A stretch of DNA of 64,000 nucleotides, from contig DATJFE010000067.1 in assembly GCA_035495955.1 (NCBI GenBank), positions 19,972 to 83,971 of the forward strand, read 5' to 3'. This document shows, piece by piece, positions 16,609-41,522 of the stretch. Positions within the stretch are counted from its first letter, which is position 1; every line of letters starts with the position of its first letter. The position numbers and the translations under genes are program-made. The notes under the pieces were generated by a model, which worked only from the letters and a program-made list of their open reading frames with translations, was not told the origin of the DNA and made no database searches. Source of the stretch: Vicinamibacterales bacterium. Its GTDB lineage: Bacteria; Acidobacteriota; Vicinamibacteria; Vicinamibacterales; 2-12-FULL-66-21.

Positions 16609-17817
16609 ATGAACCGCATAGCTGGGGGCCTGCTTCTCCTTCTTGGCGTCGCCGCGTGCGGCCGCGACCGGGGACTCCAGGCGGCCGAAGGGCAGAAGGC
16701 GCGCCGCGTCAAGATCGAAACGGCGCAGGTCCGCGACGTCCGCCGCCAGGTCGATCTCGTCGGCACGCTTGCCGCGCAGGAGGAAGCCGTCGTCAGCGCC
16801 GAGGTTGCCGGGCGGGTCTCGCGCGTCGTTCGGGACCTGGGCGATCGGGTCGCGGCGGGCACGCCGCTGCTGGAGCTGGACCCCGAAAAACTGCAATATC
16901 GCGCCGAGGCGCAGCGCGCCGCGCTCGATCAGGCGCGCGCCCGCTACGGCGCGTCTGCCGGAGGGGAGCTGCCGCCGCTCGAGAAGGTTCCTACCGTCGT
17001 CAGCACGGCCGCGCAGATGGCCGACGCGCGGCAGCAGCTCGATCGGGCGACGAACCTGTCGTCGCGCAGCCTGCTGTCGCGATCGGATTTCGAGGCGGCG
17101 CAGACGCGATACGACACGGCGAAAGCGGCGCACGATCAGGCGCTCGCATCGGCGCGTCAGCTCCGGGCGGACATCGAAGCCCAGGCCTCGTCGCTCCGCC
17201 TGGCGGAGCGAGAGCTGCGCGACTCGGTGATCCGCGCGCCTTTCGACGGGTACGTCGCCGAACGCCTCGTCTCGCAGGGCCAGTTCGTCCAGCCGCAGGC
17301 GCCGGTCGTCCGTCTCGTCCGGCTGCAGCCGCTGAAGCTCACGGCGGAAGTGCCCGAGAAGTTTGCGCCCTGGATCGAAACGGGCCGGGCGCTCGCCATC
17401 AAGGTCGACGCGTTTCCCGATCGGACGTTCGCGGGCAAGGTCGTGCGCATCTCTCCAGCCGTCAGTCTGAAGTCCCGCGCGTTCGCCATCGAGGGAGAAG
17501 TGCCGAACCCCGACGGCAGGCTGAAGCCCGGCACTTTCGCGCGCGTTCAGATCGCGACCGATCGCGTCGAGCGCGCGGTCACCATCCCCGCCGCCGCGGT
17601 GCAGAGCCGCTACGGCACCAACCGCGTCTTCCTGGTGCAGAACGGACAGCTCGTGGGGCGCGAGGTCGTTCTCGGCGATCGCGTGGGCGACCGCGTGGAA
17701 GTCTCACAGGGGCTCGAGGCCGGCACGCCGATCGTCGCGGACGATGTCGAACAACTCGCGGAGGGGATGAAAGTAACTCCCAACTCCACAACTCTCAACT
17801 CCCAAGGCGTTCGGTGA
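16609..17817 (+). CDS. efflux RND transporter periplasmic adaptor subunit (MFP/HlyD family)
   Basis: MNRIAGGLLLLLGVAACG lipobox, coiled-coil hairpin region, then beta-barrel ...VIRAPFDGYVAERLVSQGQFV... ATG 16609 (GTG 16588 alternative). The C-terminal tail TPNSTTLNSQGVR is encoded by a heptamer repeat. Confidence 0.9.
   Translation: MNRIAGGLLLLLGVAACGRDRGLQAAEGQKARRVKIETAQVRDVRRQVDLVGTLAAQEEAVVSAEVAGRVSRVVRDLGDRVAAGTPLLELDPEKLQYRAEAQRAALDQARARYGASAGGELPPLEKVPTVVSTAAQMADARQQLDRATNLSSRSLLSRSDFEAAQTRYDTAKAAHDQALASARQLRADIEAQASSLRLAERELRDSVIRAPFDGYVAERLVSQGQFVQPQAPVVRLVRLQPLKLTAEVPEKFAPWIETGRALAIKVDAFPDRTFAGKVVRISPAVSLKSRAFAIEGEVPNPDGRLKPGTFARVQIATDRVERAVTIPAAAVQSRYGTNRVFLVQNGQLVGREVVLGDRVGDRVEVSQGLEAGTPIVADDVEQLAEGMKVTPNSTTLNSQGVR
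17775..17805. repeat. heptamer repeat caactcc x4 inside the 3' end of the adaptor gene
   Basis: aactcc caactcc acaactc tcaactcc. This is the reverse complement of the gggagtt-type repeats at 4331 and 26868. Confidence 0.75.
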
Positions 17818-25894: not shown

Positions 25895-28018
25895 TCAATT
25901 CCGCAGCGGCTTCCCGGTCTTCAGCGTGTACGCGATCCGCTCGAGCGTCTTGCGCTCGCCGCACAGGCTGAGAAACGCCTCGCGTTCCAGATCCAGCAAC
26001 TGCTGTTCGCTGAGCGTCGCCGGGTGCGCGAGGCTGCCGCCGGCGAGAATCCACGCGAGCTTGCGGCCGATGAGTGCGTCGTGATCGCTGATGCGGCCGG
26101 CGCGCCATGCGAGATGGACGCCGAGCTTGAGCGCCGCGAACACGCCTTCTCCGCCGACGCGGATCGCGTCGCGCGGCCGCCTCGCCGGGCGGTGGCCCGG
26201 CGCGAGCTGGAGCGCCAGAGCCTTCGCGTCCGCGAGGAGACGGTCGCGGTTCATGGTCACCTCGTCGGCGTCGCGCAGATAGCCGATGCGGCGCGCATCG
26301 GGCGCGCTCGTTCCGACCTTCGCGAATCCGATCGTCTCGAAGACGCGCTGCACGTAGGGAAGCGGATCCCCCGGTCCAGGCGCGTCCTCCATAGCGCGCG
26401 CCAGCATTTCCTTCGTCCCGCCACCCGCGGGAATCAGGCCGACGCCGACCTCGACGAGCCCGATATAGGCCTCGGCGGCGGCCTGCACGCGGCTCGCGTG
26501 CAGCACGATCTCGCAGCCGCCGCCGAGCGTCAGCCCGGCAGGCGCGACGACGACGGGGACGTCCGCGTGCTTCAGCGCCATCGTGGCGGCCTGAAATGCG
26601 CGGACCATGAGATCCACTTCGTCCCAGTTGCCTTCCTGGGCTTCCAGCAGCAGGAGCATCAGGTTGGCCCCGGCGGAAAAATTCGGCGCGTCGTTGGCGA
26701 CGACCAGCGCGGCGAAATTGCGCGACGCTTCCGCAACGCCCGCGCGGAGCATCTCGATCGTGTCGCCGCCGATGGCGTTCATCTTCGAATGGAAGACCAC
26801 CTGCAGCACGCCGTCGCCGATATCGACAAGCGATGCGCCGGGGTTCTTGCGGACGACGCGTGACGCCTTGGGAGTCGGAGGTTGGGAGTTGGGAGTTGTC
26901 AAGACCGCCCGCGTTTCGAGCGGCCCCAGTTCCCAGCCAAAGCCCCAACGCATCGCCTTGTCGATGTCGGCGGGGGAGTACGCGATCTCGTCCGCGATCT
27001 TCTCCGTGTAGTCGAGCGTCGGTCCGAGCGTGGCCCGAAGAAACGCGCCGACCTTGTCCTTCCCTTCGTACAGCGTCCGGATACGCGCGCCGGTGGACTC
27101 GATTGAGCGCGCGGCCTCCAGCGACGGCAGCTTCGGGGTGTGCTTCGCGCGGTACTCGAGCGTGTGCGGATCGAGCACCAGGATCGCGTCGCCATTCTTC
27201 TCGTAGAACCCGCGGCCGGCTTTCGCCCCGATCATCCCCCGCGCGAGCATTCCGGCGACGAACTCAGGCAGCTCGAATGACAGCGTGCGCGCGACGTGCG
27301 CGAGAACGTCGACGCCCGCGATATCGACGGTCCTGAACGTGGCGCTCTTCGGCCGGCCGATCACGGGTCCCGTGATCGCGTCGACCTCCTCGATCGTGTA
27401 CTCGCCGGACTCGACGGCCCGCAGCACCTGCACGAGACCGAAGATGCCGATCCGATTGGCGATGAAGCCGGGAACGTCTTTCGCGAGCACGACGCCCTTG
27501 CCGAGCCGCCGATCCGCGAACTCCCCGATCGCCTCCACCACGCGTGGATCGGTCTCGGCCGTCGGGATCAGCTCCAGCAGGTGGAGATACCGGGGCGGAT
27601 TGAAGAAGTGCGTGCCGAGCCAATGACGGCGGAAACCGTCCGTTCGTCCCACGGCGATCGACGCGATCGGAATTCCTGACGTATTGGAGCTGACGACGGC
27701 GTCGGCGCGGCGGACGCCATCGACGCGCGCCATCAGCGCCTGCTTCGCGTCGAGCTTCTCGACGATCGCCTCGACGATCCAGTCTGCGTCGCCGATCGAC
27801 GGCAGGTCCTCGTCGAAGCCGCCGGTCGCGATCAACGACGCGGCGTCCGCGGTGAAGAAGGGCTCGGGCTTGAGCCGCTTCGCGCGCTCCAGCCCTTCGC
27901 GCGCGGCGTCGCGCGTCACGTCGAGCAGCCGGACGCGCAGGCCCGCATTCGCCGCGTGCGCCGCAATCTGCGCCCCCATCACGCCGGCTCCCAGCACGGC
28001 CGCGGACCGGACTCTCAT
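25895..28018 (-). CDS. fadN: bifunctional 3-hydroxyacyl-CoA dehydrogenase / enoyl-CoA hydratase (FadN-type domain order)
   Basis: MRVRSAAVLGAGVMGAQIAAHAANAG (NAD fold) ... then crotonase part ...VVFHSKMNAIGGDTIEML...ALVVANDAPNFSAGANL... 707 aa from ATG 28018, which overlaps the tetR stop (ATGA). Confidence 0.9.
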   Translation of the reverse strand: MRVRSAAVLGAGVMGAQIAAHAANAGLRVRLLDVTRDAAREGLERAKRLKPEPFFTADAASLIATGGFDEDLPSIGDADWIVEAIVEKLDAKQALMARVDGVRRADAVVSSNTSGIPIASIAVGRTDGFRRHWLGTHFFNPPRYLHLLELIPTAETDPRVVEAIGEFADRRLGKGVVLAKDVPGFIANRIGIFGLVQVLRAVESGEYTIEEVDAITGPVIGRPKSATFRTVDIAGVDVLAHVARTLSFELPEFVAGMLARGMIGAKAGRGFYEKNGDAILVLDPHTLEYRAKHTPKLPSLEAARSIESTGARIRTLYEGKDKVGAFLRATLGPTLDYTEKIADEIAYSPADIDKAMRWGFGWELGPLETRAVLTTPNSQPPTPKASRVVRKNPGASLVDIGDGVLQVVFHSKMNAIGGDTIEMLRAGVAEASRNFAALVVANDAPNFSAGANLMLLLLEAQEGNWDEVDLMVRAFQAATMALKHADVPVVVAPAGLTLGGGCEIVLHASRVQAAAEAYIGLVEVGVGLIPAGGGTKEMLARAMEDAPGPGDPLPYVQRVFETIGFAKVGTSAPDARRIGYLRDADEVTMNRDRLLADAKALALQLAPGHRPARRPRDAIRVGGEGVFAALKLGVHLAWRAGRISDHDALIGRKLAWILAGGSLAHPATLSEQQLLDLEREAFLSLCGERKTLERIAYTLKTGKPLRN
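26868..26898. repeat. gggagtt-type heptamer repeat inside fadN, encoding the interdomain linker
   Basis: ttgggagtcggaggttgggagttgggagttg on +. Read on the minus strand it encodes LTTPNSQPPTPKAS, between the dehydrogenase and hydratase parts. Confidence 0.75.
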
Positions 28019-29484: not shown

Positions 29485-30401
29485 GACGCGCTGCCCGCCA
29501 GGAGCTTGAGATACACGGCCTCCAGGGCGGGCTCCTCGTCGAATACCTCGCGGATCTCGCCGCCCGCTGTCACGAGCGCCCGAATCACCGCGGGCGCCCC
29601 CGTGTCGGGCGCATCGACAATCATCGACAGGCCGTCGGCCTCGACGCGCACGTCGCGCGCTCCGGCGCGCAGGGCGGCCTCGATGAGGCCGCCGGCCGCC
29701 GGCTTTCCACTCAATCTGACGCGCAGCCGGCAACCGAACATTTCGCGCCTCAGGGCGGACGGCTCGCCGATCGCGATCAGCCTGCGGCTGACGAGCCCCA
29801 CCCGGTCAGCCATGCGCTCGGCTTCGTCGAGATTGTGTGTCGAGACGACGATGGCGCGGCCCAGGCTGCGAAGGTGCTGAAGCAGATCGCGCACCGTGCG
29901 CGACGTCTGCGGATCCAGGTTGGCGGTGGGCTCGTCGAGCAGCACCACTTCGGGATCGTGGACGAGCGCCCGCGCCAGCGCGAGCTTCTGCTTCATGCCC
30001 TTTGAGAGGAGGACGACGCGGTCGGCTCGGCGGTCCAGGAGTTCGAACAGGCGCAGGACGCGCTCAACGGCCGCGGCCGGCTGTGCGAGCCCGAACAGCC
30101 GCGCATAGACGATCAGGTTGTCCTCGACCGTAAGGTGGTCCCAGAGTCCGGGCGTTTCGGTGAGGAACCCGATGCGGGCGCGCAGCGCGGATCCGGTTGC
30201 GCGAGTAAACGGCCGCCCGTTGACCACCACCCGGCCGGATGACGGTGGGATCAATCCCCCGAGCATCCTCAGCGTCGTCGTCTTTCCGGCTCCGTTCGGC
30301 CCGAGCAGCCCAAAGACCTCACCGCGTTTGACCTCGAAAGAAAGGTCCTCGACGGCGATCCGCTCGCCAAACCGCCGCGTCACCGATTCAACGATCAGCA
30401 T
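29481..30401 (-). CDS. ABC transporter ATP-binding protein
   Basis: Walker A GLLGPNGAGKTTTLRML, signature LSKGMKQKLALARAL, Walker B VVLLDEPTANLD. Confidence 0.92.
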   Translation of the reverse strand: MLIVESVTRRFGERIAVEDLSFEVKRGEVFGLLGPNGAGKTTTLRMLGGLIPPSSGRVVVNGRPFTRATGSALRARIGFLTETPGLWDHLTVEDNLIVYARLFGLAQPAAAVERVLRLFELLDRRADRVVLLSKGMKQKLALARALVHDPEVVLLDEPTANLDPQTSRTVRDLLQHLRSLGRAIVVSTHNLDEAERMADRVGLVSRRLIAIGEPSALRREMFGCRLRVRLSGKPAAGGLIEAALRAGARDVRVEADGLSMIVDAPDTGAPAVIRALVTAGGEIREVFDEEPALEAVYLKLLAGSAS

Positions 30402-30412
30402 GTGAGCTCAGT

Positions 30413-30445
30413 CCCGATATCCGACACCCGACACCCGACACCCGG
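30413..30445. repeat. heptamer repeat ccgacac x3 in the divergent promoter region
   Basis: cccgatat ccgacac ccgacac ccgacac ccgg. It is G-rich on the minus strand, which is the sense strand of the ABC operon 5' leader. Confidence 0.8.
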
Positions 30446-30457
30446 CGCCCCATGTCC

Positions 30458-30483
30458 GACCCCAGGTGTATAGTGACCCCAGG
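30458..30483 (+). promoter_or_regulatory. direct repeat gaccccagg x2 flanking a tatagt -10-like box upstream of csoR-like gene
   Basis: gaccccagg (30458-30466) tgtatagt gaccccagg (30475-30483). ATG at 30508 is preceded by aaagaagga. Confidence 0.3.
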
Positions 30484-30507
30484 CTCCCCGCGAGAAAAGA
30501 AGGACCC

Positions 30508-30783
30508 ATGCTGGACGAGGCGCAGCAGCAGGCTATCGTCACACGATTGAATCGAATCGAGGGCCAGGTGCGGGGCATCCGGCGGATGGTCCAGGAGCCG
30601 CGGCTCTGCATCGAGATTCTTCAGCAGCTCGCGGCCGCGGAAGCTGCCCTCAATCGGATCAGCCTCGCGGTGTTCCGGTTTCATGTCGAGAAGTGCGTCC
30701 CGGAAGGAGTCGTCAAGGGCGATCCGGAGCGCAGCCAGCGGCTCAGCGAGCTGGTCGACATCTTCGATCGCTTCGCAAAGTAG
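30508..30783 (+). CDS. CsoR/RcnR/FrmR family metal-sensing transcriptional repressor (C-H-C fingerprint)
   Basis: MLDEAQQQAIVTRLNRIEGQVRGIRRMVQEPRLCIEILQQLAAAEAALNRISLAVFRFHVEKCV... Cys, then His 25 residues later, then Cys 4 residues later, as I recall for Cu(I)-sensing CsoR. Confidence 0.85.
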   Translation: MLDEAQQQAIVTRLNRIEGQVRGIRRMVQEPRLCIEILQQLAAAEAALNRISLAVFRFHVEKCVPEGVVKGDPERSQRLSELVDIFDRFAK

Positions 30784-30994
30784 CGCGTCCCTTCATCCAG
30801 CCGATTGAATCTCCGGATTCGTCCGTTCGGATCCGGACAACTGACTCATCCGTAGTATCCCGTCTAAGTCATTGAAATATCATGGCAAGTTCCCCTTGCT
30901 TTTTTCGCGCGTGCGTTTGCATAGTGAAGTGTCCGGGTCCGTACACCGTCCGGTCGTGCTATTCGATTCGGTCTTCTTTCTGTGGAGGATGGAG

Positions 30995-33886
30995 ATGGGA
31001 GTTCGATTGGCAAGAACGGTGGTGTTGTCCGCGGCCGTCGGGATACTGACGGCGTTTGCAGCACCATCAGCAGCGCAGGTTGCCTCGGGGCGTATCGACG
31101 CCACCGTGAGCGACACAACCGGCGCCGTGCTTCCAGGAGTCACGGTCGACATCAGCGGTCCTCAAAGCCGGACCGCCGTCACCGACACGCTCGGCGAGGT
31201 TCACTTCCTGAATCTCTCGCCCGGCACCTACAGCGTCAGCGCGAAGTTGACGGGCTTCAGCGACTATCTGAACAAGAACCTCCCGGTGGCGACCGGCACG
31301 AGCGTCCCGCTCAAGATCTCGATGTCGATCGCCGGCGTCTCGACACAGGTGCAGGTCACGAAAGAAGCGCCCGTGATCGACACCAAGAAGATGACGACGT
31401 CGACCAACGTCAGCGTCGAGGAGCTCCAGAACATTCCGTCTGCGCGCGACCCGTGGGTCGTGATGCAGACGATCCCCGGCATCGTCCTCGATCGCGTGAA
31501 CGTGGGCGGCGGCGAGTCGGGGCAGCAGCCCGGCTACCAGGCGAAGGGAGCGAACGGCGGCGACAACACGTGGAACATGGACGGCATCGCGATCACCGAC
31601 ATGGCCGCCACCGGTTCCAGCTCGACGTACTACGACTTCGACATGTTCCAGGAGATGCAGGTCACGACGGGCGGCGCCGACGTATCGAACCCGACGCCGG
31701 GCATCCAGTTGAACATGGTGCTGAAGAGCGGCAGCAACACGCCGCACGGCTCGACGCGGTTCTATTTCGAGAACGAGAGCCTCGAATCGAACAACATGCC
31801 GTCGGATCTCGCCGCGACGATCGGCGGCACGAGCGGCAAGGGCAACCGGATCCATCAGTACAAGGACTACGGATTCGAGCTCGGCGGGCCGATTCTCAAG
31901 GACCGCCTCTGGGGTTGGGGCGCAGCCGGCAAGACCGACATCCAGCTCCTGACGCTCACGGGGTATCCGGATCACACAATCCTTCAGGACACCTCGTTCA
32001 AGGGCACCGGACAACTGTCGACGTCAACGCGCGCGAACTTCACGTTCTTCCGCGGCAACAAGCAGAAGTTCGGCCGTAGCGCGAGCTCGACCCGGCCGCC
32101 GGAGACGACTTACGATCAGAGCGGCCCGACCGACATGTACAAGGGCGAGGTGAACTTCGTGCTCGGGAACAACATCTTCCTCGTCGCGAAGGGCGCCCAC
32201 ATCCACGGCGGATTCCAACTGGCGCCTGAAGGCGGCATCAACGCGCAGGAGTGGATTGACGATGCCGGCGTCCAGCACGGGACTGCGGACCTCTATAAAT
32301 CGAACCGCCCGCAGGACTCGATTGGCCTGGACGGGAGCGTGTTCCGCGGGCACCACGAGCTGAAATTCGGCTACGGCTGGCGCCGGGCGCCGGTGCAGTC
32401 GTCCGACGTCTATCCGGGCAATGGCGTCATCACGGCGCACAACGGATATCCCGAGATGATTGCGTATATCCGGCGCAATTGGGCCAGCTCGGAAACCGGC
32501 GTCTATAACAGCGCCTATGCCTCCGATACCTGGACGTTGAATCGACTGACCGCCAATCTCGGCCTTCGCTGGGATCGCCAGGTCAGCTCGCTCGAGGCGG
32601 CGTCGGTTCCCGGCAGCACGGTCCTGCCGAGTCTCCTGCCCGCGATCTCGACCACGGCCGTGAAGAACGCCGTCGTGTGGAATACGGTGGTGCCGCGGCT
32701 CGGGGTCACCTACGCGATTGACGAGAATCGCAAGACGATCCTTCGCGGCAGCTACGCGATGTTCGCGTCTCAGCTGGGCGACGCCGTGGCGAGCCAGATC
32801 TCGACGATTCAATACACCGGGATCTACTACTACGCGATCGATCTCAACGGAAACAAGCTCGCGGATCCGAACGAGATACTGTTCAATCTGGGACCGATCA
32901 ATTACTACGGCTTCGATCCGAGCAATCCGACCAGCGCGACGACCAACAACAAGATCGGCAAGTATACGACGCCGCGCACGCAGGAGGTTCTGCTTGGCAT
33001 CGATCACGAGCTGATGGCCAACTTCGGCGTCAGCGCGACGTTCACGTATCGCTATTACAACCACTTCGACTGGTATCCGCTCATCGGCGTCACGCGCGCG
33101 GACTACAGCCAGGCGGGTGTGTGTACGTCGAGTGCTGCCCCCTGCGCGCCGGCGAACGGGGACACGGGTCCCGTCGGTTCGTTCAGCACGCCGTATTTCG
33201 GGATAAATCCTGCGAAGATCCCTCCCGGCCAGGGCACCAGCTATGAGGCGCGGAATGGTTACCACCAGCGCTTCCTCGGAGCCGAGCTGAGCGCCACCAA
33301 GCGCATGTCCGATCGCTGGATGGCCAGGTTCGGTTTCTCGACAAACGATCACCGCGAGTACTTCGATAATTCGAACACGTCGCAGCTCGATCCGACATCG
33401 ACGCGCGACAACCCGAACATCAACGGCGGGCACGTCATCACCCGATCGGGCGGGAGCGGCAAGAGCAACATCTTCCTCGTGCTGCCGCAGTATCAGTTCA
33501 CGGCCAACGGGATGTACCAGGCTCGCTGGGGCATCAACCTCGGCGCGAACTGGGTCTTGCGGCAGGGATATGCTGAGCCCTTCTATCGAAGCCGCGTGAA
33601 TCCCGGGGACGGACTGGGGTTTAGAAATGTACTGGCCGTCACAGACGTCACCAAATTCCGGCTGCCGGCCGTCAGCTCGCTCGACGTACGTGTGGAGAAA
33701 GCATTCCAGATTCGTCGTGCAAAAGCTGCCGTCGACCTGGACATCTTCAACATCGGCAACGCCGCGACCGTGCTCGGCCGCCAGTACGACTTGCGTCTGA
33801 GCACCAGCAGTCCCACGGGGTTCAACCATGTCCTGGAGATCATGGATCCGAGGGTCGCTCGCATAGGAGTCCGGTTCAACTTCTAG
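30995..33886 (+). CDS. TonB-dependent receptor-like outer-membrane protein with carboxypeptidase-regulatory-like N-domain
   Basis: MGVRLARTVVLSAAVGILTAFAAPSAAQ signal. GVTVDISGPQSRTAVTDTLGEVHFLNLSPGTYSVSAKLTGF. Plug-like QVQVTKEAPVIDTKKMTTSTNVSVEELQNIP. C-terminal ...RIGVRFNF. ggagg lies 6 nt before ATG 30995; ATG 30989 is an alternative. Confidence 0.85.
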   Translation: MGVRLARTVVLSAAVGILTAFAAPSAAQVASGRIDATVSDTTGAVLPGVTVDISGPQSRTAVTDTLGEVHFLNLSPGTYSVSAKLTGFSDYLNKNLPVATGTSVPLKISMSIAGVSTQVQVTKEAPVIDTKKMTTSTNVSVEELQNIPSARDPWVVMQTIPGIVLDRVNVGGGESGQQPGYQAKGANGGDNTWNMDGIAITDMAATGSSSTYYDFDMFQEMQVTTGGADVSNPTPGIQLNMVLKSGSNTPHGSTRFYFENESLESNNMPSDLAATIGGTSGKGNRIHQYKDYGFELGGPILKDRLWGWGAAGKTDIQLLTLTGYPDHTILQDTSFKGTGQLSTSTRANFTFFRGNKQKFGRSASSTRPPETTYDQSGPTDMYKGEVNFVLGNNIFLVAKGAHIHGGFQLAPEGGINAQEWIDDAGVQHGTADLYKSNRPQDSIGLDGSVFRGHHELKFGYGWRRAPVQSSDVYPGNGVITAHNGYPEMIAYIRRNWASSETGVYNSAYASDTWTLNRLTANLGLRWDRQVSSLEAASVPGSTVLPSLLPAISTTAVKNAVVWNTVVPRLGVTYAIDENRKTILRGSYAMFASQLGDAVASQISTIQYTGIYYYAIDLNGNKLADPNEILFNLGPINYYGFDPSNPTSATTNNKIGKYTTPRTQEVLLGIDHELMANFGVSATFTYRYYNHFDWYPLIGVTRADYSQAGVCTSSAAPCAPANGDTGPVGSFSTPYFGINPAKIPPGQGTSYEARNGYHQRFLGAELSATKRMSDRWMARFGFSTNDHREYFDNSNTSQLDPTSTRDNPNINGGHVITRSGGSGKSNIFLVLPQYQFTANGMYQARWGINLGANWVLRQGYAEPFYRSRVNPGDGLGFRNVLAVTDVTKFRLPAVSSLDVRVEKAFQIRRAKAAVDLDIFNIGNAATVLGRQYDLRLSTSSPTGFNHVLEIMDPRVARIGVRFNF

Positions 33887-34012
33887 CCGCGGACTACGGC
33901 CGCGGACTACGGCCGCGGAATACGGCCGCGGAATACGCGGAATACGCGGACTACGGCCGCGGAACATGCGGACTACGGCCGCGGAATACGCGGAATACGC
34001 GGAGTACGGAAC
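33887..34012. repeat. tandem array of ~12 units cggaMtacg with optional gccg insert (period 9/13), starting at the base after the stop codon
   Basis: ccgcggactacgg ccgcggactacgg ccgcggaatacgg ccgcggaatacg cggaatacg cggactacgg ccgcggaacatg cggactacgg ccgcggaatacg cggaatacg cggagtacgg. Confidence 0.9.
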
Positions 34013-34031
34013 GTAAACGCGGTACACTAAA

Positions 34032-34068
34032 CCCCCGGAGCGGCTGCGGCGGCTCCGGGGTTTTTTTT
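34032..34068 (+). terminator. strong intrinsic terminator
   Basis: ccccggagc (34033-34041) pairs with gctccgggg (34052-34060), a 9-bp GC stem followed by eight T (34061-34068). Confidence 0.9.
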
Positions 34069-34120
34069 GCGAACCTGTTTCGCCGAAGCGAAGCGGAGGC
34101 GTGCCAGCGCCATTTTCCAA

Positions 34121-34231
34121 GGCGCGAGGTGCGCGAGGTGCGTGGGGTGCGCGAGGTGCGTGGCGTGCGTGACGTGCGCACTCCCCGCACCCCTCGCACG
34201 CCTCGCACTTCGCGCACATCCTCGCACCTCA
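34121..34231. repeat. 9-nt tandem repeat (gcgcgaggt x6) followed by its inverted counterpart (cctcgcac-type x5): a ~110-nt imperfect hairpin ending 9 nt before the next start codon
   Basis: gcgcgaggt gcgcgaggt gcgtggggt gcgcgaggt gcgtggcgt gcgtgacgt gcgcact | ccccgcac ccctcgcac gcctcgcac ttcgcgcac atcctcgcac ctc. Confidence 0.85.
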
Positions 34232-34239
34232 AGGTCTCA

Positions 34240-36072
34240 ATGTCCCGGATGCAGAAGTCGGGCGCGGCGCTCGCGCTCGCGGTACTGATCGCGGCCTGCG
34301 GTGGCGGCGGCGGAAACAGCGGCAGCAACTCGGGCTCCAATCCTGGCGGCGGCACGACGCCCGCGGCCAATCCGTGCACCGCGGCCGGCGCGGCGGACGT
34401 GCAGGCCGTCGGAAGCGTCGCGGCCGGCGCCGGCGTGCCGGACAAGAAAACGCTCATCGACGGCAACCCGCGCGGCCGGCTCGCCGAGGCGCTCTGGATC
34501 CACCAGGAGGCGCAGCAGCGGCGCGCGGCACGCCCCGCGGGAGCGGGCGCCCAGCCGTCCCTCACCACGCCGTCTCCCGTCGCGGACGACGTCGGAGAGA
34601 TCGCCGTTCTCCAGGATCAGGGCGACCTCATACTGGCGGCGAATCCGTACGATCTCCGCAGTACGGGCATACGTTTCACCCGCAACGGCTCGAGCTACAC
34701 GCTGTCGAAGATCGACGGAACCTTCCGGACGTCGCTCGGCAACCAGGTCACGCTGGGCGACGACGACAGCACCGGCGTCGCGATTCCATTCTCATTTCCG
34801 TTCTACGGAATCGCGCAGACCTCCGCGTTCGTCAATTCCGATGGCAACATCACGTTCGGCGAGGAAGACAAGGAGAGCACCGAGCGCAACGTCTCGCGCC
34901 TGCTCGCCGGCGCCCCACGCGTCGCGCCGTTCCTCGCGGATCTCGATCCCACGTCCGGCGGAAAGATCTTCGTCAATGCCGCGGCGGATCAGTACACCGT
35001 GACGTGGTGCAGCGTACGCGGATTCGATTCGACGCGCACGACGACGGCTCAGGCGACGCTGCTGCCCGACGGAAGCGTCGAGATGAAGTACGGCGACACC
35101 ATCACGCTGACCGACGCGGTGGTCGGGATCTCGCCGGGCCACACGGGCACCTTCACGACCGCCGATTTGAGCGTCGCCGCTGCCGTTTCCTCGAGCGGCG
35201 CCATCGGCGAGCGCTTCGCGCAATCCGGCACGCTCGATACGCAGGCGGTCGCGAAGAAGTTCTACGCGTCGCATCCGGACAACTACGACCAGATCCTGCT
35301 GTGGAGCGATCAGCCGCTCATACACGACGCGTTCGCGTACGAGGTCACGGTGGCGAACGAGATCCGCGGCATCGGACAGGACATCTTCGACCTGTCGACG
35401 GCTTTCGGCAGCGCCGGACGGCTTCGCTCGCTGGTCGTGATGGACTATCTCGGAAAATACCCTGACGATCCGACGGCGAAATTCCTGGGCGAGAACAACA
35501 CGCTCAGCGTCATGGGCCAGGAGGTCGGCCACCGGTGGCTGGCGTACCTCGAGTTCCGGGATCGGACCGGCGCGCGCTCCGACGTGCTGCTCGGACGCGA
35601 TCTGGCGCACTGGAGCTTCTTCTTCAATTCCGACGCGTCGGTGATGGAAGGCAACCAGATCGAGGATCAAGGCGGCGGCCAGTTTAGGACGGTCGATGCG
35701 GTCAAGCGCTACAACCGCCTCGATCAGTACGCGATGGGGCTCGTGCCGCCGAGCGCCGTGCCGCCGTTCTTCTACGTCGAGAGCCCGACCACCACGCATT
35801 CGCGGGAGGACGCGCCGCAGATCGGCGTCTCGTTCACGGGCACGCGCCGCGACGTGCTCGTAGACGACGTGATCGCGATCGAGGGAGCGCGCGCGCCCGC
35901 GTCCGCCGATTCATCGAAGACCCATCGTCAGGCCTTCATCTACATCGTCGGCGCCGGACGCGGCACGGATTCGGGCCAGGTGGCCAAGCTCGATCGCGTT
36001 CGCTCGGCGTGGGAGCCGTTTTTCGCGCAGGCGACAGAAGGCCGCATGACGGCCGTCACGCGACTTCATTAG
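34240..36072 (+). CDS. lipoprotein with NIDO-like N-terminal region and metzincin/leishmanolysin-like C-terminal region carrying QEVGH in place of HExxH
   Basis: MSRMQKSGAALALAVLIAACGGGGG lipobox. ...VAIPFSFPFYGIAQTSAFVNSDGNITFGEEDKES...RVAPFLADLDPTSGGKIFV... then ...LSVMGQEVGHRWLAYLEF...LAHWSFFFNSDASVMEGNQ. The codons gtc atg ggc cag gag gtc ggc cac were checked directly. The upstream 37 codons of ORF 34129 are repeat-derived (RTPRTPRT). Confidence 0.6.
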   Translation: MSRMQKSGAALALAVLIAACGGGGGNSGSNSGSNPGGGTTPAANPCTAAGAADVQAVGSVAAGAGVPDKKTLIDGNPRGRLAEALWIHQEAQQRRAARPAGAGAQPSLTTPSPVADDVGEIAVLQDQGDLILAANPYDLRSTGIRFTRNGSSYTLSKIDGTFRTSLGNQVTLGDDDSTGVAIPFSFPFYGIAQTSAFVNSDGNITFGEEDKESTERNVSRLLAGAPRVAPFLADLDPTSGGKIFVNAAADQYTVTWCSVRGFDSTRTTTAQATLLPDGSVEMKYGDTITLTDAVVGISPGHTGTFTTADLSVAAAVSSSGAIGERFAQSGTLDTQAVAKKFYASHPDNYDQILLWSDQPLIHDAFAYEVTVANEIRGIGQDIFDLSTAFGSAGRLRSLVVMDYLGKYPDDPTAKFLGENNTLSVMGQEVGHRWLAYLEFRDRTGARSDVLLGRDLAHWSFFFNSDASVMEGNQIEDQGGGQFRTVDAVKRYNRLDQYAMGLVPPSAVPPFFYVESPTTTHSREDAPQIGVSFTGTRRDVLVDDVIAIEGARAPASADSSKTHRQAFIYIVGAGRGTDSGQVAKLDRVRSAWEPFFAQATEGRMTAVTRLH

Positions 36073-36177
36073 CGGGTGACGGGGGACAGGGGAGGGGTGT
36101 CGGAGGACGACCTCCCCGACGCCCGACCACCCCCAACGCCCGACCTCCGACCCCCGACGCCCGACGCCGACGCCCGT
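36073..36177. repeat. G-rich arm / C-rich arm low-complexity tract filling the whole spacer between two convergent stops
   Basis: gggtgacgggggacaggggaggggtgtcggagg acga cctccccgacgcccgaccacccccaacgcccgacctccgacccccgacgcccgacgccgacgcccg. Canonical G4 motif on + at 36074-36097. Multiple GGG tracts on the minus strand at 36110-36176. Confidence 0.85.
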
Positions 36178-38250
36178 CTATTTCCAGGACAGCGCGGCGA
36201 GCGCTTCCTTCGCCTGTCGCTCGTAGGGGCCGCCGAGTTCCACGTATCTCTCGAAATTCGCGATCGCGCGGCGGCGATCCTCATCGCCGCCGATCCATTT
36301 CTGCGTGAACTGGTCGTAGCGCTGCGATTTGGCGAGGCGCATCTGGTGGGCGCGCGCCAGGTTGAAGTATCCGAGCGCGTCCGCAGGGCCTACCGTCGTC
36401 GCGCGCTCGAAGGATTCGATGGCCGCGTCCAGCGCGCCGCGCCGGACCTGAATCACGCCGATCGCGTCCGACACTTCCGGATCCTGAGGCCAGCGCTGCT
36501 CGGCGTCGCGCAGCGTCTTGATGGCCGTCCCCTCGTCGTGCTGCTGGCCGTACGCGTCCGCGAGCGAAAAGTACACGGGCTCGAACTCCGGGACCGCCCG
36601 GCGAACGCGCTCCCATGCCTCGGCGGCGTCGTGATAGCGCTGGAGAGCGTACCGCGACAGCCCCAGCGCGTAGTGGACCCACGGCCGCGCGTCGGGCGCG
36701 GCCGCCGCGGTTGCCAGCGTGCGCGCCGCCGACTCCACGTCGCCGCGTTGATACGCGCCCCAGCCCGCCACGGCCGCGGGCGAGTCGGTGGCGGAGGGCC
36801 CGGTGGGCGCTAAACGCGCCAACGAGGCGGACGCGGACGCCGGAGAGGGCGCCACCGTGGGTGTTACGCCGCCCACTGGTTCCGTGGGATGCGGTGCTTC
36901 GGGTGCTGCAGGTGCCGGCGGAGCTGGCGCGACGGGTACTGGCGCGACGGATCGTGGTGGAGCATCCGTAGCAGCCGTCGCCCCTTTAGGCCCAGCAGGT
37001 CCCATGGTATCCGTCGTGATTCGCGCTGGCGGCAGCGCTACGTATCCGCGCCGCGCGCGCACTTTGACGCCGGGTCTGGCCACATTGACCGCGATCGTCC
37101 GGTACTTCCCGTCGAAGGCCGCTTTGGCCGGACTGTAGGCAATCAGGTAGTACGTGCCGGCGTCCTGCTGGATTTCGTCGAGCGCCCGCCCGAAATTGTT
37201 TTCGTTGCGAATCGCGAATCCGCCGGTGTCGACGGCGAGGCTGTTGGGGGCGTCCGTCTGCAGGTCGAAGTGCGGCCCGCCGCCGCTTATCGTGCTCTCC
37301 GCGGCCAACTGGTCAATCATGGTCGCCTGGGCGCCCTTGTTGAGCCCGCGCGCGTCGAGTGCGTAAAAGCGCGCTCCCGCGCGGGCGGCCAGGCCGACGG
37401 CCTGACGGACCTGCGATTCGAGCTTCTCGGCCACGAAGCCTTCCGACAGGAAAACGACCGTCTTTTGTCCCGGCAATCGCGCCAGTCCGTTGGCCAGCGC
37501 CCCGACGGTCGTCAGCGTGCTCATCGTATCTCGCTGAATATCGCCGATCAGGCGGTTTGCCTTCTCGCGGACTTCAACGTCAGGGCTCCCCCGTTTGCAG
37601 TAGTCCGGGTCGTCCACGCACGCGCGCGTGACGACGATCTCCATCGTTTCGCGGTCGTTGTCCGCGAGTCGGAATAACTCGCCCTCGTCCTGAATCCGAG
37701 GCCAGTCGCGCGTCAACTCGATCTGCCTGCTGCGCGTGTCGCCCGGCATCTTGACAGCCTGCGCCGCGGCGCGAAGCTCCTCGCGATCCGTGGTCAGACG
37801 GTTGTTGGCCATCTTCCCGTCGACGACGACCCCGCCGATGTCGCCCTGCCGCCAGCGCTCGGCGACGAACTTCACGACGGCTTCGCGCGTCCGCTGGAGG
37901 CCGCCGGCCGAGAGGTGGTTGGAATCGAAGAGGAACAGCCAGACTGCCGGTGCCGCGGAGGCTGCAGGTGCGAGCGGTGCTGCGGGGTGCGCGGCCAAGG
38001 GTGTTTCCGGAGCTGACGGATGCGCGGAAGCCGCCTGCGCGCCGACGAGGACCACGGACTGGATCTTCTGCGGCGCTCCATCTTCGGTCAGCACGAAGTC
38101 GTCCGGCCCGAGATCCATCACGAAGCGGCCGTCCTTGAACACGCGCACGTCGACTTCGACGACATCCGTTCCGGAGCGGAACGTTTGCGGCGGCTGCGGC
38201 GGCGAGGGGGCCTGCGACGCGAGCAGCGCCGCGAACACCAGCGGGATCAC
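36178..38250 (-). CDS. VWFA-related acidobacterial-type (TIGR03436-like) domain protein with C-terminal TPR repeats
   Basis: GTG 38250 overlaps the upstream stop (GTGA). VIPLVFAALLASQ signal. ...TFRSGTDVVEVDVRVFKDGRFVMDLGPDDFVLTEDGAPQKIQSVVLV..., ...WLFLFDSNHLS..., C-terminal TPR ...YALGLSRYALQRYHDAAEAWERV... Confidence 0.8.
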   Translation of the reverse strand: MIPLVFAALLASQAPSPPQPPQTFRSGTDVVEVDVRVFKDGRFVMDLGPDDFVLTEDGAPQKIQSVVLVGAQAASAHPSAPETPLAAHPAAPLAPAASAAPAVWLFLFDSNHLSAGGLQRTREAVVKFVAERWRQGDIGGVVVDGKMANNRLTTDREELRAAAQAVKMPGDTRSRQIELTRDWPRIQDEGELFRLADNDRETMEIVVTRACVDDPDYCKRGSPDVEVREKANRLIGDIQRDTMSTLTTVGALANGLARLPGQKTVVFLSEGFVAEKLESQVRQAVGLAARAGARFYALDARGLNKGAQATMIDQLAAESTISGGGPHFDLQTDAPNSLAVDTGGFAIRNENNFGRALDEIQQDAGTYYLIAYSPAKAAFDGKYRTIAVNVARPGVKVRARRGYVALPPARITTDTMGPAGPKGATAATDAPPRSVAPVPVAPAPPAPAAPEAPHPTEPVGGVTPTVAPSPASASASLARLAPTGPSATDSPAAVAGWGAYQRGDVESAARTLATAAAAPDARPWVHYALGLSRYALQRYHDAAEAWERVRRAVPEFEPVYFSLADAYGQQHDEGTAIKTLRDAEQRWPQDPEVSDAIGVIQVRRGALDAAIESFERATTVGPADALGYFNLARAHQMRLAKSQRYDQFTQKWIGGDEDRRRAIANFERYVELGGPYERQAKEALAALSWK

Positions 38251-39008
38251 TGACGCACGTTGGCGATGAAGAGGTCGTATTTGTTCTTGCCGGCGCGCTG
38301 CAGGAAGGCGATCTTCGTGCCGTCGGCCGACCACGCGGGCAGGAGCACGCTCTTCGTCGCGTCGATCTGCTGCCTCTGGCCCTGCTGATCCATCAGCGCG
38401 AGGTGGCCCGACTGGTTGGTGTAGGCGATCATCCCGAGCCGCTCCGGCGACCAGCCGAACGTGTAGCCGGGCAGGAACTGCTGGTTGATGAATTCGCCGA
38501 CAGTCTCACCCTTCAGCGTGAGCGTGAAGACGTGCAGGTGCTGCGTCTGGCTCGCTTGCGTCGTCGCCTCTTCGACCGTCGAACCGGTCGCACTGGCGGA
38601 CGTGCCTCCCTTCGCGAGAGAGCCGCCCATCGGCGACGCGGTGGCGGTGGCCATCCGCTGGTCCTCCTTGATGTCGATCCCCCACGTCTTCGATCCTGGC
38701 GCGTACTTGTTCGACTTCCACGTCCAGTATCCGCTCTCCCACTCAGGCTTCGCGGAGACCGGCTCGGGCTTGCCATCCGCGGCCGACATCACGAAGTAGC
38801 GCGGATTGGTCACCATGCCGCGCCCGTCGCGATCGGACGTCTGCAGGAAGAGCTTCGTGCCGTCGTCCGACCATGCCAGCTCCGTCGGCTCGCCTTTGAG
38901 CCTGCCGGTATCGATCTCGGCCACCCTGGCCGGCACCTCGACGGTCAGCGTCTTTGCGGACGGCGTCTGCAGGAGACCCGACGCGACGATGAGCAGCGTG
39001 AGCACCAT
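38247..39008 (-). CDS. exported PD40/TolB-like beta-propeller repeat protein
   Basis: 253 aa with signal-like MVLTLLIVASGLLQTPSA and PD40-like segments LAWSDDGTKLFLQTS and PAWSADGTKIAFLQ. GGAGG lies before ATG 39008. Confidence 0.6.
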   Translation of the reverse strand: MVLTLLIVASGLLQTPSAKTLTVEVPARVAEIDTGRLKGEPTELAWSDDGTKLFLQTSDRDGRGMVTNPRYFVMSAADGKPEPVSAKPEWESGYWTWKSNKYAPGSKTWGIDIKEDQRMATATASPMGGSLAKGGTSASATGSTVEEATTQASQTQHLHVFTLTLKGETVGEFINQQFLPGYTFGWSPERLGMIAYTNQSGHLALMDQQGQRQQIDATKSVLLPAWSADGTKIAFLQRAGKNKYDLFIANVRQ

Positions 39009-39017
39009 GGAATCCTC

Positions 39018-41522
39018 CTAGCGGGCTCGCTCGATTTGCGCGAGCTTTGCGTGAAGCTCGGTTGAGTCCGGCAGCGCCTGCAGTCCGGCGCGCACGGCCT
39101 GCACGGCAAGCGCCGGCTGCGCGATCCGCAAGTACGCGTCGGCCAGCGCCAGATGCGCGGGCACCATCTTCGGATCGATCGACGCCGCGGCGCGCCACGC
39201 GCCGATCGCCCGCCGATGATCGCCCTGGCCTTCCCATGCCCAGCCGAGAACGAACGCCACCGAGGCGTTCGTCTGATCGAGGTGCATCGCGGCATCGAGC
39301 TCCGCCGCAGCCCCGGCGTAATCGCTCTGCGCGAATGCCTCGAATCCTTTCGTCGCCCGAACGGCGGCGGGCGCCGTTGAAAGCCTCAGCGATGCCCGCG
39401 CGCCGCGGACGAAATCCCCGTTCAGGATGTCCGACGGCCGGAACGCCGACGGAAGATCGATCGGGGCAGGCGGCGCGGTTCCGGCCGACACGTCCAACTC
39501 GCGCGACACGTCCGCGATTGTCTCGGAGCCGTCCGTGACCTTGACGCGCGCCACATACGCGCCGGGCGGAACCTTTGCGAGTGGAAACGAGAACCTTGCG
39601 CGGCGCATCACGCCCGCGCGCGCATCGACGGTGTCTCCCATCTCCGCACGGACGGTCTCGGTGGGGCCGCCGGCCTCGGCCGGCACGAGCGACGCCGTGG
39701 CGACGAGTCCCTTCAGTTGTTCCGCCGTCCGGCCATAGGCTTCGATCATGCCCGCCAGACCATCGTCTGCGTACGCCCGCGCGCGCACGGGAAGCGCGCC
39801 GTTCATTGAACCAAGAATCAGATCGCTGACCGCCACATCGGGTCCCGACAGCGGGCGCACGTCGAGCTTGCGATCCGCGCTGCCCACGAGGCCACCCGGT
39901 TCGCGCACGACGACGCGCATCAGATACGCGCCGGGCGGCACTTCGAACTGGACCCGAAACGCCGACCGCCCGGTCGCCGCGCCGGCCGCGGCCGCCGCCG
40001 GCAGCGGCATCGTGTCGGTCCCGCTCGACGCGACGCGCCCGTCTCTGGTGTTGCGGACGACGAAGACGACGTCCGCGGATTCGTGCGTCGCGTCCCGCAC
40101 GGGCAGGTCGGCGTCCAGGGAGAGGACGATGCGGGCGAGCGTGGGATTGTCGGAGCGAAGCGCGTACGTCGTGTAATCGACGCGCAGCGCCTGCTGCGCG
40201 AACGGCGCGGCCAGCGCCGCGTCGATTGTTGCGCGGCGATCGAATCCCGCGGCGGCTTTCGGCACGGCATACCCCGTGCGCGCGCTGACGTGCGCGCCCG
40301 CGCGCGTGACCCTGACGGAGACGTGCCGGTACTGGCCCGGAGAGGCGAGCGCCGTACTGCCGGGCGTGAAGCCGACGAGGTAATAGTCCTGCGCCTGATC
40401 GGCGATGCGATCGAGCGCCGCGTCGAGATGGCTGACGGCGTCTGGAATCAGCGCGCCGTCGGTTTCGGCCGCAAGGCTCCCCAGCGGCTCGAGGCGCGCC
40501 TGAATCTCGCTCGAGGTGCTGGTCGAGGACACTTCCGGCTGACTCGCATCGCCCTCGGCCCGGCGATTCAGATCGAAAGCATAGAACACGGCGTAGGTGT
40601 CGGCGGCGGCCGCCTCGACCTGTTCGAGCTCGCGCGTGACGCTCTCCTGGTGGAAGCCTTCCGAAAACAGGACAACGATCTTTCGTCCCTCGATCGCGCG
40701 ATACTGCTCGATCACGTCCGACAGCCGCTGCGTGAAGTCGCGCGATGCGGCGTCGGCCTGCGCGACGATCGTCCGCGCGTTCTCGAGAATCGCGTGCCGC
40801 ACGGCCGCGGGGTCCTCGGCCTGCCGTTCGGCCGCGCGGCTCGTGACGCGCGTCCCCGTCGGATCGGCGGCGCCGCCCACGTCCGCTCCCGCAGCCAGCG
40901 GCTGGCGTGTCATGACGTCGGTTGTGATGCGATCGTTGCCGCCGGCGATCTCGTACGCCTCCTGCAGCGTAAGGTTGCCCACGGCCGTGGTGACGTTGCG
41001 CTCGAGTCCTCCGCGGACTTTGGCGAGCTCCGCGATCGCACGGTTGCGATCCGCCGTGAAGCCGACCGATGGACCGGGTCCGGGGATGCCGACGAGGGCG
41101 ACGCGATCCGACGGCCGCACGCGCGTCCTGATGAAGGTCTCGGCGGCGCGACGCGCGGTCTGTTCGTTGCCGGGGGCGATGTGCGATTGATCGAACACGA
41201 GGAGATAGAGATGGCCCCGCGGCGCGCCGCGATTGCTCGAGACTTCGGCAGACACCGAACGCAGCGCGGCGTCGGCGTAGAGGCCGGCGGGCTCCTCGAT
41301 GTGCTGGAACAGCAGCAGCGGCAGGACGTGTCCGTCCTCGATGACTTGCACCTCGCCAGGGCGCACGTCGGCGATGGGCCGTCCGGAACTGTCGGTCACG
41401 CGGATGTCGAAGCGGACGAGATCCACGCCCGAGTGAAAGACGGGCTGGCCGGTCTGCGCCGCCATCGATACGGACGCGGCGGCTGCCACGATCGTCGCGA
41501 GCGGAAGTGCGCGCACCTTCAA
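39018..41522 (-). CDS. VWFA-related acidobacterial-type (TIGR03436-like) domain protein with C-terminal TPR repeats
   Basis: 834 aa. MKVRALPLATIVAAAASVSMAAQ signal. ...VFHSGVDLVRFDIRVTDSSGRPIADVRPGEVQVIEDGHVLPLLLF..., ...YLLVFDQSHI..., TPR tail. The TTG start at 41522 overlaps the upstream stop (TTGA), so the start is uncertain. Confidence 0.82.
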   Translation of the reverse strand: MKVRALPLATIVAAAASVSMAAQTGQPVFHSGVDLVRFDIRVTDSSGRPIADVRPGEVQVIEDGHVLPLLLFQHIEEPAGLYADAALRSVSAEVSSNRGAPRGHLYLLVFDQSHIAPGNEQTARRAAETFIRTRVRPSDRVALVGIPGPGPSVGFTADRNRAIAELAKVRGGLERNVTTAVGNLTLQEAYEIAGGNDRITTDVMTRQPLAAGADVGGAADPTGTRVTSRAAERQAEDPAAVRHAILENARTIVAQADAASRDFTQRLSDVIEQYRAIEGRKIVVLFSEGFHQESVTRELEQVEAAAADTYAVFYAFDLNRRAEGDASQPEVSSTSTSSEIQARLEPLGSLAAETDGALIPDAVSHLDAALDRIADQAQDYYLVGFTPGSTALASPGQYRHVSVRVTRAGAHVSARTGYAVPKAAAGFDRRATIDAALAAPFAQQALRVDYTTYALRSDNPTLARIVLSLDADLPVRDATHESADVVFVVRNTRDGRVASSGTDTMPLPAAAAAGAATGRSAFRVQFEVPPGAYLMRVVVREPGGLVGSADRKLDVRPLSGPDVAVSDLILGSMNGALPVRARAYADDGLAGMIEAYGRTAEQLKGLVATASLVPAEAGGPTETVRAEMGDTVDARAGVMRRARFSFPLAKVPPGAYVARVKVTDGSETIADVSRELDVSAGTAPPAPIDLPSAFRPSDILNGDFVRGARASLRLSTAPAAVRATKGFEAFAQSDYAGAAAELDAAMHLDQTNASVAFVLGWAWEGQGDHRRAIGAWRAAASIDPKMVPAHLALADAYLRIAQPALAVQAVRAGLQALPDSTELHAKLAQIERAR

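Follow-up and report, generated by a model that had tools for sequence, protein, structure and literature searches.

Can a protein keep a working metal site of the HExxH type when the first histidine of the motif is replaced by glutamine? This question is raised by a lipoprotein gene on the forward strand of contig DATJFE010000067.1 of a Vicinamibacterales bacterium. From this contig we analyzed one stretch of 64,000 nucleotides (nt), called the window below, and all coordinates count from its first letter. The gene product has QEVGH at the place of the motif. The original prediction, made from the letters of the window alone, saw in it a metzincin-like core and left three options: a pseudo-protease or binding protein, a protease with unusual metal ligation, or a sequencing error. 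The second option fits best the data presented here. Judging from its sequence and those of its relatives, the protein is probably an exported, lipid-anchored, metal-dependent hydrolase, and most likely a peptidase. What is new is the Gln/Asp state of its site within a very large zincin-like family that had no prior annotation.

Glutamine at position 427 and its partner at position 454

The site elements read in the original prediction are all present in the protein. QEVGH occupies residues 427–431, with CAG (35518-35520) as the codon of Gln427, and it is followed by R-W-L-A-Y-L, then by His457-Trp458 and by the S-V-M-E-G-N string. One distance was misjudged: the gap from LEF to LAHW is 15 residues, not 24. 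His431 and His457 are separated by 25 residues.

Is the glutamine real? A word-indexed search gave more than 2698 relatives of the lipoprotein, and the closest 120 were taken (66–92% identical). All of them come from Vicinamibacterales metagenome-assembled genomes (MAGs), and every one is labelled 'hypothetical'. Position 427 is Gln in 120 of the 120, and each of them reads G-Q-E-x-G-H-R-W. The codon was then compared in 84 related genomic loci (labelled L001 and so on), which comprise 80 from a scan with one genome per GTDB species and 4 from contig look-ups and belong to Vicinamibacteria or unclassified Acidobacteriota. Together with the window (n = 85) these loci have CAG in 64 cases, CAA in 6 and the His codon CAC in 15, so that 69 of the 84 related loci are Gln-type and 15 are His-type. 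A motif kept to this extent lies far outside chance. Because the Gln codon varies synonymously across independent assemblies, sequencing error is excluded and the glutamine is under selection. The codons CAC and CAG lie a single third-position change apart, therefore switching between the two residues is easy.

The family to which the protein belongs is very large, without existing annotation and abundant in Acidobacteriota. A HMMER search of 1.84 billion cluster representatives detected 6583 clusters (50% identity) at E<=1e-3 and 971 at E<=1e-30. The conserved module corresponds to query residues ~110-609 and occurs either standalone, in proteins of ~570-620 amino acids (aa), or within proteins of 800-3166 aa. 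Relatives carry the accessory domains PPC, CARDB, TIG and Big_1, which are typical of secreted bacterial peptidases or other enzymes and of surface proteins. The source names of 10 representatives and 240 matches are 'hypothetical', 'nidogen-like domain-containing' or 'IPT/TIG domain-containing', and in a plasmid collection the sole match is a hypothetical protein of Granulicella. The putative catalytic domain thus stands in thousands of soil Acidobacteriota proteins labelled only 'hypothetical' or 'nidogen-like', and naming its function would annotate a sizeable part of the dark matter of soil metagenomes.

Residues at the site were counted in the best 150 cluster representatives aligned to the family profile, of which ~141-144 are aligned at the site. 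Here position 427 is His in 85 and Gln in 56. The homologue alignment proposed in the original prediction therefore places the glutamine where many homologues have the first His of HExxH, and by its sequence the protein can be called a Gln variant of an HExxH family. The rest of the site hardly varies: Glu at position 428 in 141/143, His at 431 in 143/144, Asn at 472 in 132/143, with the other positions listed in Table 1. The family signature is [HQ]-E-x-G-H-[RLQ]-[WF]-L-A ... G-R-[DQ]-x-A-H-W-S-F-F-x-[ND]-S-[DE]-A-S-x-x-E-G-N.

Does the loss of the first histidine mark the beginning of decay? In the 360 family sequences that we collected, Glu428, His431, His457 and Glu470 are all kept in 230 of the 231 Gln-type members, which makes the pseudo-protease option unlikely. 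Degenerate members are only 3 of 360, and each lacks several site residues together. Since real decay in this family drops several site residues at once, the Gln protein is unlike the decayed members. The three degenerate proteins are the family representatives P0224, P0230 and P0235 (with, for example, R-A-..-Q, and Ala at 457), and they are likely to be true pseudo-enzymes.

On a neighbour-joining tree the His and Gln states are interspersed, with ~21 parsimony changes among 132 representatives, a rough count that is probably inflated. Position 427 thus appears to have switched many times. The switch is coupled with a second position. Gln427 is paired with Asp454 in 41 of 56 representatives, and His427 with Gln454 in 48 of 85. 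We also compared 40 closest His/Gln pairs that do not overlap. Residue 454 is different in 35 of them, and in 22 of these 35 the His-type partner has Gln454 and the Gln-type partner Asp454. At other positions no single recurring substitution was found in more than 7 of the 40 pairs. The change at 454 needs two nucleotide changes, as Asp is coded by GAC or GAT and Gln by CAG.

The simplest chemical reading is that residue 454 would be a second-shell partner of residue 427. In the His state the carbonyl of Gln454 would accept the N-H of His427. In the Gln state the carboxylate of Asp454 would accept the amide N-H of Gln427, or it might join the metal as an extra ligand. Gln427 and His431, separated by one turn where a short helix ends, would be metal ligands together with His457 from the following loop, and Glu428 would act as general base. 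In the best explanation the ancestral state of the family is HExxH with Gln454, and Gln427/Asp454 is an alternative state that arose repeatedly. This alternative is kept by purifying selection and would be a working site with altered metal chemistry, not a dead one.

The near-invariance of Glu428, His431 and His457, together with the coupling of the His-to-Gln change to the Gln-to-Asp change at 454, shows a site that is maintained and remodelled, not decayed. We are inclined, by a modest margin over doubt, to see here an active hydrolase whose alternative metal site has been selected. If the Gln427/Asp454 pair is functional, then many independent natural 'mutant pairs' could show how a swap in the first and second shell retunes a site, with a shift from zinc to copper as one possibility. 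In the recurrent coupled switch, nature offers an experiment on how metal sites evolve.

Start site, domains and fold of the lipoprotein

At this site the window has one long in-frame open reading frame (34129-36072, forward strand). Its first 37 codons cross a non-coding array of 9-nt repeats, and homologues begin at the Met of MSR or MPR, which is ATG 34240 in the window. For these two reasons we take ATG 34240 as the real start. A start at 34129, with a long pseudogene-like reading frame, was considered and rejected on the same grounds.

The N-terminus, MSRMQKSGAALALAVLIAAC followed by GGGGGNSGS, is a signal peptide with a lipobox (...AVLIAAC20GGGG), which agrees with the pattern [LVI][ASTVI][GAS]C. 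Ala19 and Cys20 are conserved in at least 90% of close homologues (alignment A1), and the protein is a predicted lipid-anchored exported lipoprotein, as was originally proposed. Cys20 would be lipidated and followed by a flexible Gly/Ser-rich tether. Low values of the predicted local distance difference test (pLDDT) at residues 20-72 of the structural model are consistent with such a tether. A paralogue was sought in the window, and none was found there.

The N-terminal half contains the strings FPFYG, VNSDGNITF and APFLADLD (residues 186-236), in which a NIDO-type pattern had been recognised. This was borne out at the level of the family. Pfam NIDO (PF06119) matches 38 of 57 family members with a best E of 2.2e-8, and the representative P0124 has E 1.5e-13 (51.6 bits). 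The family profile also matches the N-terminus of the Flavobacterium adhesin RemA (8gl6_D) with E 1.4e-6. In contrast to this family-wide likeness, the lipoprotein itself scores 19.8 bits (E 8.5e-4), under the Pfam gathering cut-off of 25. In the model beta strands fill residues 115-327 with pLDDT >90. This beta-sandwich (~113-327) probably binds the substrate or a surface.

The C-terminal domain is more difficult to place. Pfam and NCBIfam scans of the lipoprotein and 27 relatives gave only NIDO and the accessory domains, and in the PDB, searched by sequence and with two family profiles, the RemA N-terminus was the sole match. For the C-terminal half, Pfam, NCBIfam and the PDB yielded no relative by sequence at a limit as loose as E<=10. 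AlphaFold2 models were built from a 57-sequence alignment, and the full-length model has pLDDT 87.7 and a predicted template modelling score (pTM) of 0.82. The Foldseek comparison proposed in the original prediction was made with these models and gave no relative in the PDB. Against BFVD the top matches were SprT-like and IrrE-N minimal zincins, which are not significant (E 0.5-3). In the model the motif helix 421-430 is preceded by a helix (334-344) and strands 351-356, 366-370 and 397-403. This order of helix, three strands and motif helix is that of the minimal zincin scaffold and gives modest support, at the level of a predicted structure, for a relation to it. His-type members have matches to Reprolysin_5, Reprolysin_2, Reprolysin_4 and Astacin, all sub-threshold (E 0.005-0.3; Reprolysin_5 E 0.005-0.08), which cover 70-100 residues up to the motif.

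The family thus shares with zincins the [H/Q]ExxH motif in a predicted helix, the invariant Glu, the order of secondary structure elements, these sub-threshold Pfam matches and the non-significant SprT-like and IrrE-N structural matches. It differs from them in several respects: no match was significant, no PDB structure matched, the part after the motif helix is mostly beta, position +3 lacks Gly, position +6 lacks His or Asp, and a helix bearing Glu is missing. The Gly at +3 after the second His occurs in 15 of 143 sequences, and at +6 neither His nor Asp is conserved. We place the C-terminal domain in an undescribed family of zincin-like metallohydrolases and not among metzincins of the leishmanolysin type.

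With leishmanolysin (MEROPS M8), the relative suggested at first, the protein has in common a third His far from HExxH and surface anchoring. The likeness does not extend further: the family has no HExxHxxGxxH/D, no Gly after the second His and no relative by PDB sequence profile or Foldseek. Peptidase_M8 (PF01457) is missing from the 25 listed of the 28 Pfam families with matches at E<=10 in 57 members, and it had no match in the lipoprotein or in the 19 representatives scanned. The spacing from the second His to the third is ~62 residues in leishmanolysin, against 25 here. The supposedly conserved (V/L)-M-E/T-G does not contain a conserved Met-turn, since of 143 sequences 68 have Met at position 469 and 60 have Leu. 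Met499 (Y-x-M-G-L), conserved in at least 90%, could be the equivalent of a Met-turn. In the literature nothing relevant turned up for NIDO proteases of bacteria or for metalloproteases of Vicinamibacter.

Table 1. Positions of the lipoprotein gene, its parts and the neighbouring elements in the window
Feature	Coordinates	Strand	Basis or remark
CsoR/RcnR-family repressor, 91 aa, C34-H59-C63	30508..30783	+	PF02583, E 5e-24
TonB-dependent-receptor-like outer membrane protein (CarboxypepD_reg + Plug + barrel)	~30989..33886	+	Pfam; directly upstream
Tandem 13/9/22-nt repeat array between receptor and lipoprotein genes	33886..34008	+	Tandem Repeats Finder (TRF), inverted-repeat search
GC-rich hairpin + T8, terminator-like, preceded by GCGGTACACT	34029..34072	+	Inverted repeat I7
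15-mer GGCGTGCCAGCGCCA in the lipoprotein 5' leader	34098..34112	+	Exact copies in L001, L002, L003, L004, L006
107-nt insert with two mutually inverted 9-nt repeat arrays	34123..34229	+	TRF, folding
Lipoprotein coding sequence, 610 aa	34240..36072 (stop TAG 36070-36072)	+	Open reading frame list; homologues co-linear over full length
Signal peptide + lipobox (LIAAC, Cys20 codon 34297-34299)	34240..34299	+	Read from sequence
Gly/Ser/Asn-rich tether	Residues 21-45	+	Read from sequence
NIDO-like all-beta domain, ~residues 113-327	34576..35220	+	Pfam NIDO, family profile, model
C-terminal ~280-aa domain with [H/Q]ExxH...H site	35221..36069	+	Model of the domain: pLDDT 96.8, pTM 0.92
QEVGH (Q427 E428 V429 G430 H431)	35518..35532	+	C-terminal end of predicted helix 421-430
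Asp454 codon, covaries with residue 427	35599..35601	+	Closest-pair comparison
His457-Trp458, candidate third metal ligand	35608..35613	+	H 140/143, W 142/143 aligned representatives
S467-V-M-E470-G-N472 conserved loop	35638..35655	+	S467 and G471 invariant; E470 128/143; Met469 not conserved
CCCGACG heptamer array downstream of stop	36115..36176	+	TRF score 55

Gene neighbourhood and possible functions

If the site is maintained, then we can ask: With which partners does the protein work? Directly upstream lies a gene for a TonB-dependent-receptor-like protein with both Plug (E 1.1e-5) and barrel (OMP_b-brl_4, E 1.5e-22) and with CarboxypepD_reg (E 4.3e-12). Before it stands a csoR-like gene, whose product matches PF02583 with 84.9 bits (cut-off 22.8) and has the Cys-His-Cys set; all 27 orthologues keep C34, H59 and C63. 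The window and L001-L010 have these genes in the order csoR-like, receptor, lipoprotein. In L073-L084 the receptor gene is directly upstream of His-type relatives, with the shortest gaps of ~12 nt, and in ~31 loci a gene for a CarboxypepD_reg+TPR protein is interposed. A csoR-like gene lies within 7 kb of the family member in 26 of the 84 loci, in at least four arrangements.

The lipoprotein would sit at the cell envelope together with the TonB-dependent receptor and would probably process or capture what the receptor imports. Its expression is probably metal-responsive and probably under the CsoR-type sensor. That the family is repeatedly linked with such a receptor and with a sensor of the CsoR type points to an envelope module that responds to metals and is not known to have been described in Acidobacteriota. 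The arrangement resembles two known systems. As in SusC/SusD and RagA/RagB, a CarboxypepD_reg-Plug-barrel receptor gene is followed directly by a lipoprotein gene; the differences are that this lipoprotein has no Pfam match to SusD or RagB, has an enzyme-like site, is paired with the receptor by gene order, and in the window is separated from it by a terminator-like hairpin and a 354-nt spacer. With CsoR operons the window shares a 91-aa PF02583 protein with the Cys-His-Cys pattern, but classical operons encode copper efflux or chaperone genes, and here a receptor and a lipoprotein lie downstream on the same strand.

One further locus deserves mention. In L086 (7828-10921) genes for a histidine kinase, a response regulator and a Metal_resist/LTXXQ protein come after a His-type member from an Acidobacteriota MAG that is not classified further, an arrangement that is another independent hint of a link with metal stress.

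Several observations weigh against an active hydrolase with an alternative metal site that works with this receptor. The C-terminal domain had no significant relative in sequence and profile searches of Pfam, NCBIfam and the PDB, and the best E values of Foldseek against the PDB were 0.07 for the full-length model and 0.49 for the C-terminal one. Comparison by hhalign with an M64 peptidase, encoded by a neighbour gene in L085, aligned the 15-residue motif only, with a probability of 4%. After the motif helix the domain is rich in beta structure, where most zincins have a helical lower subdomain. The 427-454 covariation test was corrected for phylogeny only in part, and the convergence of Gln427, His431, His457 and Asp454 on one point would follow from sequence covariation only. 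In the neighbourhood, the terminator-like hairpin of the window stands between the receptor and lipoprotein genes, and the association with receptor and CsoR is confined to Vicinamibacteria, being absent from three His-type loci of Thermoanaerobaculia/Acidobacteriota, one of them next to a two-component system and a Metal_resist/LTXXQ protein.

Which metal would such a site prefer? One alternative is that the Gln427/Asp454 pair shifts it from zinc to copper, and that a CsoR-type Cu(I) sensor induces this copper-compatible isoform. We consider this rather unlikely, although the chemistry has a precedent. VMP3 of Volvox carteri (QEXXHXXGXXH), a matrix metalloproteinase of the gametolysin type presented as the only characterised QExxH metalloproteinase, is reported to prefer copper (Heitzer & Hallmann 2002, J Biol Chem 277:28280, cited via bioRxiv 10.1101/2020.06.30.165720 and PMC9818292). 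In VMP3, as described in these sources, the first His of HExxH is naturally Gln, the catalytic Glu and the second His are kept, and the protein is extracellular and reported active. However, it is a eukaryotic enzyme of the metzincin type with the full xExxHxxGxxH and has no known sequence relationship to our family, so that the analogy is only chemical. In the bacterial family the candidate third ligand is 26 residues downstream and the switch is coupled to the Gln-to-Asp change at 454.

The position of the csoR-like gene can be read in the same direction. CsoR binds Cu(I) via two Cys and one His (PMC7558416). A gene with two Cys and one His of this family is present upstream in the window, as in the 26 loci named above. 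Neither copA nor copZ was seen in L001-L004, the four loci with genes listed, which leaves the downstream genes as the obvious CsoR targets; near the csoR-like gene of the window no copper-efflux gene was observed. But the adjacency is common to both forms, with 23 of 69 Gln-type and 3 of 15 His-type loci, and so is not Gln-specific. The CsoR/RcnR family also senses Ni/Co, formaldehyde and persulfide, and C-H-C alone is no proof of copper sensing. In the classical copper-sensing CsoR a Tyr usually stands before the first Cys, and in the protein of the window this place is taken by Leu. No classical GC-rich palindrome of a CsoR operator was recognised upstream of the csoR, receptor or lipoprotein gene. 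The copper explanation is kept low because the CsoR link is common to His-type relatives and because the metal of the sensor and its operator are not established.

A wider version can be formulated: a metallohydrolase family of new fold would toggle between His427/Gln454 (zinc) and Gln427/Asp454 (copper-preferring), with the Gln form induced by CsoR and working with the TonB-dependent receptor. Our confidence in this whole picture is small. If true, bacteria would have their first counterpart of the Volvox QExxH protease with its copper preference, and two residues would form a natural switch of metal specificity.

Another alternative, also with little in its favour overall, is that the protein no longer catalyses and serves as a partner of the receptor: the old active site would hold a metal or a metal-bound ligand and pass it on. 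It would then resemble peptidase-like metal-uptake proteins or lipoproteins of the SusD/RagB type. The place directly downstream of the CarboxypepD_reg-Plug-barrel receptor is conserved in Gln- and His-type loci, a metal-sensor gene is near, and the lipoprotein has a long tether, all of which would suit such a role. But pure binding would not need the general base Glu428, which the Gln-type members keep with a single exception. Many family members have no receptor gene nearby, and in relatives PPC and further domains are found that secreted enzymes typically have.

It is still less probable that the loss of the first His simply ended catalysis and left the protein with a structural or adhesive role at the surface. 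Gln is indeed rare as a zinc ligand, and NIDO-like domains do occur in adhesins such as RemA. Against this, the Gln clade conserves the other site residues strictly, the switch has recurred together with a specific second-site change, and truly degenerate members drop several residues together. An ordinary protease of the metzincin or leishmanolysin-like (M8) kind, or a misread sequence of such a protease, can be dismissed almost entirely: the xExxH ... HW ... (V/L)ME resemblance and the weak Reprolysin and Astacin matches of His-type members are opposed by the missing HExxHxxGxxH/D, the variable Met469, the missing M8 match and PDB fold, and a Gln codon in 70 independent loci with synonymous variation.

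Leader elements, repeats and the downstream block

The intergenic regions around the gene contain several recurring elements. Within 30900-30990 the receptor gene has its own promoter-like TTGCA-N17-CATAGT, conserved at the same place in L001, L003, L007 and L010. It is followed by a partly palindromic leader (GTGTCCGG...CGGACAC-like) and then by the GGAGGATGGAGATG start region. The palindrome in this leader is a possible repressor site. A perfect palindrome, TGAATGAATGTTCATTCATTCA, adjoins the csoR-like gene on its upstream side in L003 (~2240-2290), L020, L030 and L047. It is probably a TetR operator, because a TetR-family gene is adjacent in L003 and L004.

Upstream of the lipoprotein gene a unit of TA[CA]ACT (a -10-like box), a GC-rich hairpin and a T-run occupies 34015-34072. 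The same unit recurs in leaders of L001, L005, L007, L008, L012, L023, L025 and L071, where it precedes the transcription unit with the lipoprotein gene, whether the first gene codes for the lipoprotein or for the CarboxypepD_reg/TPR protein. Two roles are conceivable: it may terminate the upstream gene, or it may be an attenuator close to the promoter. In an Rfam search of 30380-36400 only sub-threshold chance matches to the hairpin were obtained.

The 15-mer GGCGTGCCAGCGCCA has copies in the same relative place in other loci (5961-5975 in L001; 5758-5772 and 5969-5983 in L003). The loci share only 67-71% identity in their proteins, yet the 15-mer is kept, 25-40 nt before the lipoprotein start. 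We consider it a candidate for an operator or for an RNA element of the leader.

Just before the start codon the 107-nt insert consists of GCGCGAGGT-like repeats followed by their complement, which form one long hairpin with a fold energy of -88.6 kcal/mol (z = -8.3) that stops 5 nt short of this codon. The insert has a copy of CAAGG on either side (34118-34122 and 34230-34234), and orthologous leaders lack it. It has the look of a small palindromic element, mobile or expandable, that was inserted at the ribosome-binding site.

Downstream of the lipoprotein gene a convergent block (36181-41522, reverse strand) codes for TPR proteins of 718 and 834 aa and, between them, a 253-aa PD40/beta-propeller protein. 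The block is syntenic in L001-L010, and in other loci a sulfatase gene is next to it.

In the original prediction the gene was bracketed by the two largest repeat structures of the window. For the upstream side this agrees with our results, as the arrays at 33886-34008 and 34122-34227 have TRF scores of 81-112 and so rank with the largest of the window, but the one that follows the stop codon is ordinary. About a dozen similar 7-14-nt arrays were found in other intergenic regions of the window. We therefore rejected the idea that repeats form a special frame around the gene, and the 'bracketing' reflects a habit of this genome. Heptamer arrays are located at 13781-13843, 15178-15223, 30413-30444 and 36115-36176, and also at 17775-17805 and 26868-26898. 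They form a few families (CCCGAC[ACG]; AACTCCC or its complement), and the same units are found in L003, L007 and L018, so that they represent a lineage-wide class of short tandem repeats in Vicinamibacteria.

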